DNA of 64,000 bases from Octopus vulgaris (Eukaryota): contig OX597840.1 of the NCBI GenBank assembly GCA_951406725.2, forward strand, positions 5,518,001 through 5,582,000. Reading direction: 5' to 3'. The notes beneath the pieces were generated by a model. It saw nothing but the letters and a program-made list of their open reading frames with translations. It had not been told where the DNA came from and made no database searches. A program made the position numbers and the translations under genes. Every line of letters begins with the position of its first letter. Within the stretch, counting starts at the first letter, position 1. Of this stretch, positions 52,700 through 54,631 are shown piece by piece.

Positions 52700-53253
52700 T
52701 ATATATATATATATTTATATATATATATATATATGCCCTCTATATAATATAAGATAAATAAATATATTCAAGTGGAAATAATTTACAGATTTTTTTCTCT
52801 AATGAGGTTTTTCACGCTAACTATTTCATAATTTCTTATGAAGATTTTTATCCTATTTTTAAATTATATATATATATATATATATATATATATATATATA
52901 TATATATATATATATACACACACACGTTTACATAATTGTGCTCACTCACGCATACACAGACACGGGGGTGGGAGGGAACTACAGAAAAAGTGTTGTTCCT
53001 TTTGCTCTTGTTGTTAGTGTTTAGCCACAGGTCAACCACCAACGAGCAAACTTTTCGATAGAGTGCGTCTCAGCCGTGATCATACCGGGTGTATATGTGA
53101 ATGAAATATGGCTGGTATTTTTAGCCGGTCTATCGACCACGTTGAGGCTGGAGTCGGTGGCTGGCGTTTTGCTGCCTGTCGCAGAGAAAGAGTACAAGAG
53201 GAGAAGAGAGAGAGAGAGAAAGAGGGTGAAAGAGTGAGAGAAAGAGAGCGGGA

Positions 53254-53321
53254 ATGTTGGAAGATTTGTCTGGTATTCCTCTGTCGCATAAAGAGAGAGA
53301 GAGAGAGAAGGAAATATCTAT
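53254..53321 (+). CDS. Candidate alternative first coding exon (MLEDLSGIPLSHKEREREKEIS-M)
   Basis: ATG at 53254 (G at -3) is open up to an AT|gtatgt donor at 53322, in phase 2 and in frame with the exon at 54577. It is preceded by a GA-rich leader and lies in a CpG-retaining zone. Confidence 0.45.
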
Positions 53322-54576
53322 GTATGTGAACATATAGATAGATAGATAGATAGATAGATAGATAGATAGATAGATAGATAGATAGATAGATAGATAGATA
53401 GATAGATAGATAGATAGATAGATAGATAGATAGATAATAGATAGAAAGATAGATAGATATTTATATTGCATTATATGGTGTTTTAATTACTTTTTAAATA
53501 AACCGCACCAATTATATATCATTTAGCACACTCACACACACATATATATATACACACACACATAAATAATTACTCTTATATACAAATACATACGTACACA
53601 GAAACACACACATGTATACATGCAATTACACATATAGATATACATGCTCATATATAACATTTATGTAAGTGTACTCTTACATAGACACACTCAAATACAC
53701 ATATACATACATACACTGAAGAGTACACATACATACACACAAATATATACATACACACACACATATATATATATATACACACACAAATATATACATACAC
53801 ACACACACATATATATATATACATACACACACCTATACATACACACACTCACACATACAGATACTCATATATATATATACACACAAATATATACATACAC
53901 ACACTCACACACACACACACATATATATATATATATATATATACACACACACACATCTATACGTACACATACATATATACATTCATACACACATACATAC
54001 ATACATACATACATACATACATACATACGAACATACATACGAACATACATACGTACATACATACGCACATACACACACACACATACATACATACACACAC
54101 ATACACACAAACATACATACATACATATACGAAACTACATACACACACAGAGGCAAGATGGTAAGAGGAAAAAAATGCACAATAGCGACAACCACCATTA
54201 ACAATCACAACAACAACAACAACAACACTAGTGAAAAGTATGTCGTGTAACACAAAGATCACCGCCTCAACCCCCACCATCTTCACACTACCACCACCAC
54301 CAACAACAACAACAACATAAATGATCTAAGTTTCTATAGTGAACGAAAATAACAACACACCAGTACTAGATTTATATACACACATTACTGTATATATATA
54401 TGTAATTTAGACGAAAAGTCGAGTGCGTTGAAGGTGTATATAGATATATACATATACATGTGTGTCTGTCTGTCTGTTGTCAATGTATGTATATAGGTGT
54501 ATATATAATTAAAAGACATGGAGAGAATGTTACAACCTTTAAATTCTACTGAAATTGTTGTGTTACCATCTTCCAG

Positions 54577-54631
54577 GAGCGAGGAACCTGTTTCGTCGAA
54601 TATGGATATATCGACTGGGCATATTGTTTTG
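54577..54631 (+). CDS. PTPRN2: Next conserved coding exon of the IA-2/PTPRN2-like gene
   Basis: ttccag| acceptor and TTG|gtaagt donor, 55 nt. Its first G completes TGG (Trp) from the upstream exon, then SEEPVSSNMDISTGHIVL, matching the family signature WSEEPVxSNMDISTGHMIL. Confidence 0.95.

Follow-up and report, generated by a model that had tools for sequence, protein, structure and literature searches.

A likely alternative start at an intron end, with a predicted soluble IA-2, in Octopus vulgaris

Soluble forms of receptor phosphatases and of IA-2

IA-2 is commonly treated as a membrane protein of dense-core vesicles that releases its PTP domain by cleavage and in no other way. For other receptor PTPs, catalytic-only isoforms from alternative starts are listed in Table 8 of a mouse survey (PMC1431701): cyt-PTPepsilon (Ptpre), the Ptpro short form, Ptprg, Ptprm and Ptprs; in the same table, Ptprn and Ptprn2 are listed under secreted forms only. 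In the cyt-PTPepsilon type, one gene yields both a receptor and a protein without signal peptide or transmembrane helix that begins with a short N-terminus of its own; this is the arrangement proposed here for octopus. The octopus N-terminus differs in being a contiguous extension of an internal exon over its acceptor, conserved across two phyla.

In mammals, ICA512-CCF is described in the available text of PMC2172607 as the μ-calpain fragment 659-979 of IA-2, which enters the nucleus and binds PIASy. Its extent is similar to that of the predicted octopus protein: 321 aa, with about 18 residues before the SEEP-equivalent (a figure inferred from a 303-residue bird PTPRN domain) against 20 in octopus. 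The likeness is one of extent alone: ICA512-CCF is made by proteolysis after exocytosis and keeps the receptor flank, whereas the octopus form would be transcribed and would carry a different N-terminus. Of the two mammalian proteins, IA-2 is considered phosphatase-dead, and IA-2beta is classed as a phospholipid phosphatase (PMC9900141, available part).

An activity-induced internal H3K4me3 promoter of mouse Ptprn2, about 100 kb upstream of miR-153 in intron 19, is reported in the accessible part of PMC5293492; like the region described below, it is promoter-like and lies in the body of an IA-2 family gene, but it was assigned to miR-153 and not to a protein. In the available part of a 2025 review (PMC11802530), exon-13 skipping and three splice forms of PTPRN2 are the only variants mentioned. 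The exon-13-skipped transcript of IA-2 also lacks the transmembrane region; unlike the octopus form, it is transcribed from the normal promoter, loses the exon by skipping and retains the exons before it. The corresponding part of PMC7880684 holds nothing on IA-2 isoforms. No description of the isoform or of its motif was found among the literature entries listed (the first 20 of 52 and 12 of 840 in two cases), read as titles and openings of abstracts, and subscription journals, supplements or the fly and worm databases could hold one.

The octopus locus and a probable start at 54518

The window (the whole 64,000-nucleotide stretch of O. vulgaris DNA analysed here) is microsatellite-rich animal DNA carrying part of an IA-2/PTPRN gene on the + strand. 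The receptor exons were located as follows:

1006..1136, + strand: exon A, juxtamembrane segment DLCRQKMQ...RSSTSS of the full-length receptor, ending in phase 2, donor GTAAGT at 1137
26835..26876, + strand: exon B, a 42-nt cassette of phase 2-2 with AG/GT ends, whose full codons read ETSSIRSTKAGLE
54577..54631, + strand: exon C (the SEEPV exon), SEEPVSSNMDISTGHIVL, where the folded PTP region begins; ends in TTG, donor GTAAGT at 54632

All three were matched to O. bimaculoides XP_052833091.1: exon A was identical at 37/37 residues and exon C at 19/19, and exon B was found by tblastn (E=4e-7) with one residue different. Exon C also matched the N-terminus of human PTPRN2 chain 2QEP (E=1.9e-4), and 2I1Y was matched as well. 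The LCRQ...SSTSS segment is followed, in order, by the NMDISTGH exon, as in the IA-2/PTPRN (R8) family. A single PTP domain (PF00102) and an upstream transmembrane helix are present in the cephalopod orthologues, the octopus exons for both lying outside the window; the catalytic loop of these orthologues is HCNDGCGRTG, and WPD is absent.

The intron before exon C measures 27.7 kb, or 53.4 kb if exon B is skipped. Exon B lies 25.7 kb into that longer intron and changes the conserved Trp of SSTSSW to Cys plus 14 residues. It is included in P0031, P0032, P0033, P0042 and P0140 and skipped in P0045, P0141 and P0143; by taxon, it is present in Octopus, Argonauta and some cuttlefish-type proteins and skipped in others. 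Since exon B is optional, the junction has three alternative upstream partners. Elsewhere, genomic loci L010, L025, L032, L036, L040-L042 and L062 have no intron between SSTSSW and SEEP, which would remove the site of the alternative start there, and in P0003, P0034 and P0035 the SEEPV exon is tandemly doubled inside one genomic ORF.

Directly upstream of exon C, the following features were identified:

54506..54508, + strand: in-frame stop TAA, four codons before the alternative start, by which read-through from upstream is blocked
54518..54576, + strand: MERMLQPLNSTEIVVLPSSR, predicted N-terminus of the short form, by which the SEEPV exon is lengthened in frame at its 5' side, across its acceptor

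After the TAA at 54506, the frame runs unbroken as LKD-MERMLQPLNSTEIVVLPSSR-SEEPV. The start context at ATG 54518 is AAAGAC-ATG-G, and a second ATG lies at 54527, so that the PTP domain is preceded by an in-frame start of its own, closed upstream, as in cyt-PTPepsilon. Between the stop and the acceptor at 54576, the sole phase-compatible AG is the GAG at 54525, which has no pyrimidine tract. With no usable acceptor after the stop, 54518-54576 cannot be an insert of the receptor, and would be an N-terminus if translated.

The peptide is also constrained and unique to the short form, again as in the cyt-PTPepsilon type. It is identical at 13/17 residues to the N-terminus of P0136, a short frame in cuttlefish-type data (below), and none of 5000 shuffles reached its score. 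The PTP domain of O. bimaculoides is identical to the cuttlefish-type domain at 258/298 residues, a comparable proportion. Octopuses and decapodiforms parted roughly 270-300 million years ago. When a profile of 21 full-motif sequences was run over the 1767 stop-free peptides of the window in YAG register (the candidate itself included), the last 14 residues before R came top with a score of 21.5, the next best scoring 16.8. This N-terminus is not in the octopus entries retrieved (XP_052833091.1, XP_014780978.1 and a 96-aa O. sinensis fragment).

The exon lies within a wider compositional feature:

52309..57354, no strand: CpG-retaining domain in a CpG-depleted gene body, likely an unmethylated internal promoter region

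After masking of tandem and dispersed repeats, segmentation gave this domain as the single best segment (log-likelihood ratio 24.1, against at most 6.5 in 20 shuffles). Its CpG o/e is 1.04, compared with 0.34 upstream and 0.32 downstream (about 0.33 outside, repeats masked), and CG makes up 110 of its 212 CG+GC dinucleotides, against 259/968 outside. The domain spans the SEEPV exon and has its midpoint near 54830. A few small bins elsewhere in the window reach an o/e of 0.8-1.3 on little unmasked sequence. In octopus, gene bodies carry the methylation and promoters have little of it (PMC9476566, available part); a patch that has long stayed unmethylated inside a CpG-depleted gene body therefore suggests a promoter or an enhancer.

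A soluble IA-2 starting at 54518 or 54527, made from a likely internal promoter in the CpG domain, is the best reading of these data, with a probability of roughly 0.7. Transcription of the short form in octopus, the promoter role of the CpG domain and the length of the protein are predictions. An internal promoter within 52309-57354 would give a second IA-2 mRNA, whose first coding exon would be exon C with 59 nt added at its 5' side; the final 60 nt of the intron would thus serve twice, as acceptor end (54576) for the receptor and as coding sequence for the short form. Transcription may begin immediately before 54518, or further away at 52.2-53.3 kb, in which case the mRNA would have an untranslated leader that might include 53254-53321. 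The predicted product has about 320 aa (20 + 301 = 321, or 318 from ATG 54527, the 301-residue domain length being taken from relatives).

Having no signal peptide, lumenal domain or transmembrane helix, such a protein would bypass dense-core vesicles and could form a vesicle-independent pool of PTP domain, set by transcription and not by exocytosis-coupled calpain cleavage. It might act as a decoy, as a lipid phosphatase or as a competitor of the receptor tail for partners; the first two roles are predicted from the HCNDGCGRTG loop without WPD, taken with a dead IA-2 and a lipid-active IA-2beta, and the conserved N-terminal motif would most likely be a docking or targeting sequence. A separate soluble form, in two phyla at least, would allow the role of the free domain to be tested apart from the vesicle protein, as the internal start or promoter could be deleted by itself. 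The comparison also brings to light a conserved motif that has no name and a blind spot of annotation, in which gene models report the short form as a partial or split gene.

Short frames and a longer motif in other animals

A profile search (best 120 of 386 matches) and cluster look-ups gave three complete short frames in cuttlefish-type data: P0135 (318 aa, 20 contigs, starting MLQPLYRTEVVVLPFSR), P0136 (322 aa, 7 contigs, starting MQRRMLQPLYRTEVVVLPFSR) and P0137 (330 aa, 7 contigs, starting MRRRRMLVMLLQPLSSRLTEVVVLPLSSR). Each runs unbroken from Met through SEEPV and SYMEDHL to the ALPQ C-terminus, with the Met at the same place in the three sequences. Compared with the full-length P0143, which itself matches Sepia pharaonis over 166/166 residues, the domain is identical at 301/301 residues in P0135 and P0136 and at 291/301 in P0137; P0137 differs by whole-residue insertions, and the frame is kept. 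On a 142-kb contig, the same peptide is contiguous with exon C (P0026). As judged by hydropathy, the short proteins lack signal peptide and transmembrane helix, as cyt-PTPepsilon does: the 19-residue maximum is 0.1 in P0136, 0.4 in P0039 and 1.5 in P0137, compared with 2.4-2.7 in full-length proteins. The introns after exon C are absent from P0135-P0137, and we infer that these contigs come from spliced RNA.

A longer form of the N-terminus was found outside the cephalopods. A search with the exon C frame, a query that contained none of the upstream motif sequence, returned 29 proteins, 28 of which are ORFs that run into the intron past GHIVL and are therefore read from genomic DNA. In 25 of these 28, an occurrence rate enriched by the 73-aa length floor, the motif FxH[IV]xxW...PCxxTExxxLxxxR stands directly before SEEPV. 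When DNA was scanned without a length floor, the motif was present in 2 of 39 loci with an AG before SEEP (near-duplicates and one continuous frame included) and 21 loci stopped within 14 codons; the motif is thus lineage-restricted. Over 32 codons, the two loci with the motif, L001 and L002, have 10 identical, 14 synonymous and 8 non-synonymous codons, with 8/4/18 mismatches at the three codon positions, and this is the pattern of coding sequence. That TE is a mere branch-point word was ruled out, as the T and E codons vary (ACA GAG, ACG GAA, ACT GAA).

The motif also reaches the rest of the protein. P0037 runs from it into SYMEDHL, and its TE...L...R segment continues into the next exon in eight proteins in total. 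The 432-aa models XP_074659356-8 of the nemertean Tubulanus polymorphus start with the full motif, contain the PTP domain and have no hydrophobic helix; the motif or a derived form is also carried by the bivalve Sinanodonta woodiana (KAL3832706.1) and the gastropod Elysia marginata (GFS10131.1). Because automatic annotation splits this large gene (XP_052833091.1 starts at an internal Met), short RefSeq models are weak alone. For four motif ORFs searched, Pfam gave no family for the motif; the ESM Atlas gave no usable match, and two AlphaFold models of the nemertean short form had mean pLDDT of 46 and 50 and were unusable. Regex matches to exon A and the motif in one protein (P0006, P0015, P0016) were rejected on inspection, the apparent exon A being a serine run in the alternative N-terminus.

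Other N-termini were seen beside this one. Littorina XP_070211758.1 (P0156) and Dreissena XP_052248016.1 (P0049) are short RefSeq IA-2 proteins of 313 and 318 aa with unrelated N-termini before SEEP, and transmembrane-less IA-2 may have arisen in molluscs by more than one route. Two similar loci, L028 and L031, lack the motif but are open for about 130 codons before SEEP, and these may encode yet another alternative N-terminus.

On the best reading, a short cytosolic IA-2 would be conserved at least in molluscs and nemerteans. A wider proposal is evenly poised between right and wrong: that since before the mollusc-nemertean split IA-2 genes have encoded a soluble second protein, with its first exon in the intron end and the motif FxHIxxW...PCxxTExxxL, as a transcriptional equivalent of the calpain-released ICA512 fragment, and that coleoids kept a shortened version together with a cassette exon at the same junction. 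If true, neurons could adjust the amount of IA-2 in the cytosol or nucleus without recourse to vesicle exocytosis.

The strongest competing account, which we consider unlikely, is that the octopus extension is a decayed relic, the ancestral short isoform having been lost or being seen only as intron-retaining RNA, and that the CpG domain is an enhancer. Cephalopods do lack the FxHIxxW half and the Cys of the fuller motif, no octopus transcript with the extension is among the entries retrieved, intron ends are constrained by splice signals, and CpG retention fits an enhancer as well; the intron-free contigs could be RNA that retains only a slow upstream intron, with the ORF caller taking the first Met. 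Against decay stand the 13/17 identity with cuttlefish, close to the 258/298 of the PTP domain, the shared position of the Met, the frame-keeping insertions of P0137 and the presence of complete short frames on 34 contig records.

The candidate exon at 53254-53321 and other features of the CpG domain

A transmembrane-less IA-2 transcribed from inside the intron had been proposed for this gene, with a different first exon:

53254..53321, + strand: candidate coding exon of the original prediction; real sequence at chance level, homologue not found, which could be untranslated leader

The concept held up, being favoured by the intron-free cuttlefish-type frames, the nemertean RefSeq model and the CpG domain; the exon did not. 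Its description was accurate: a GA-rich tract lies at 53183-53248, the ATG at 53254 opens 22 codons, and the donor AT|GTATGT (GT at 53322) is in phase 2, the phase of the acceptor at 54576/54577. The exon also lies inside the CpG domain, which had been taken for the only CpG-retaining part of the window; the retention is real after masking, but the domain extends over 52309-57354 and is not specific to this exon.

Such ATG/donor pairs are common in this DNA. Of the 1700 GT sites between exon A and the SEEPV exon that are preceded by an ATG in frame, 162 close a frame of 20 codons or more and score as well as 53322 or better, 53322 itself matching 6/9 consensus positions in a simple nine-position count; 68 of the 162 lie between exon B and 54500. 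Within 52215-54500, there are six such sites with at least 10 codons, three of which outscore 53322. The frame consists partly of (AG)n, and the donor adjoins a 126-nt (GATA)n. Among 148 IA-2 sequences (with few octopus-derived entries), none shares a 4-mer with the peptide in the 40 residues before SEEP, so that its expected conservation in relatives was not borne out; it resembles no IA-2 N-flank retrieved, and when it was scored against seven alternative N-termini of relatives, between 987 and 4526 of its 5000 shuffled versions did as well. The pair is probably due to chance, and the relatives use instead the contiguous extension, 1.2 kb downstream.

A coding first exon at 53254-53321 spliced to 54577 is accordingly very unlikely. 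In its favour, besides the correct ATG, open frame and phase and the position in the CpG domain, the upstream flank 52976-53193 was found in a second organism (run X20) with 4 substitutions and 1 gap, and the Littorina protein has an unrelated 12-residue N-terminus with G as its last residue before SEEP, suggesting that first exons spliced separately to that acceptor do occur. With so few octopus-derived entries among the 148 sequences, a recent octopus-only exon is conceivable.

A search of sequencing runs with 52215-53330 listed 24 runs, none of them marked as RNA; 20 contain part of the stretch and none half of it. Reads of 4 of the 24 runs were placed on 52925-53345, with 53194-53345 masked as repeat, so that coverage applies to 52925-53193. 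From run X1, which is only guessed to be RNA, two contigs were obtained over 52945-53193 (outside the repeat-masked 53194-53345), neither showing a joint; over the same masked target, X5 gave no placed reads and X6 a 36-nt dispersed-repeat piece alone. The stretch 53165-53185 is pyrimidine-rich and acceptor-like, ending in CAG before the GA tract, and is crossed by an X1 contig without a joint.

Least probable of all, though compatible with a soluble IA-2 from 54518, is an internal promoter serving mainly a non-coding product (a miR-153 host or an antisense RNA) with the short protein incidental, a reading that has its precedent in mouse Ptprn2 (PMC5293492, available part) but leaves the protein-level conservation of the extension unexplained. 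The 27 ORFs of at least 50 aa in 52-58 kb are by inspection mostly microsatellite translations. An Rfam search of the window gave 260 matches, and mir-153 is absent from the 150 best of them, a weak argument given that the homologous intron would be beyond the window. Those 150 matches were microsatellite-driven and all below the gathering score.

A second candidate exon (ATG 52243, 14 codons, phase-2 donor AAG|GTGAGG at 52287, 8/9) was rejected, being at chance level and having no homologous peptide; at the 5' edge of the CpG domain, 52243-52287 is a candidate untranslated first exon. At the same edge, a SINE-like dispersed repeat with a 108-nt tandem duplication (51873-52217) raises raw CpG counts. 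Within the domain, an inverted repeat at 52497-52771 is MITE-like, with arms of about 100 nt that are 76% alike, and holds a 58-nt dispersed-repeat fragment seen at more than 10 other sites of the window.
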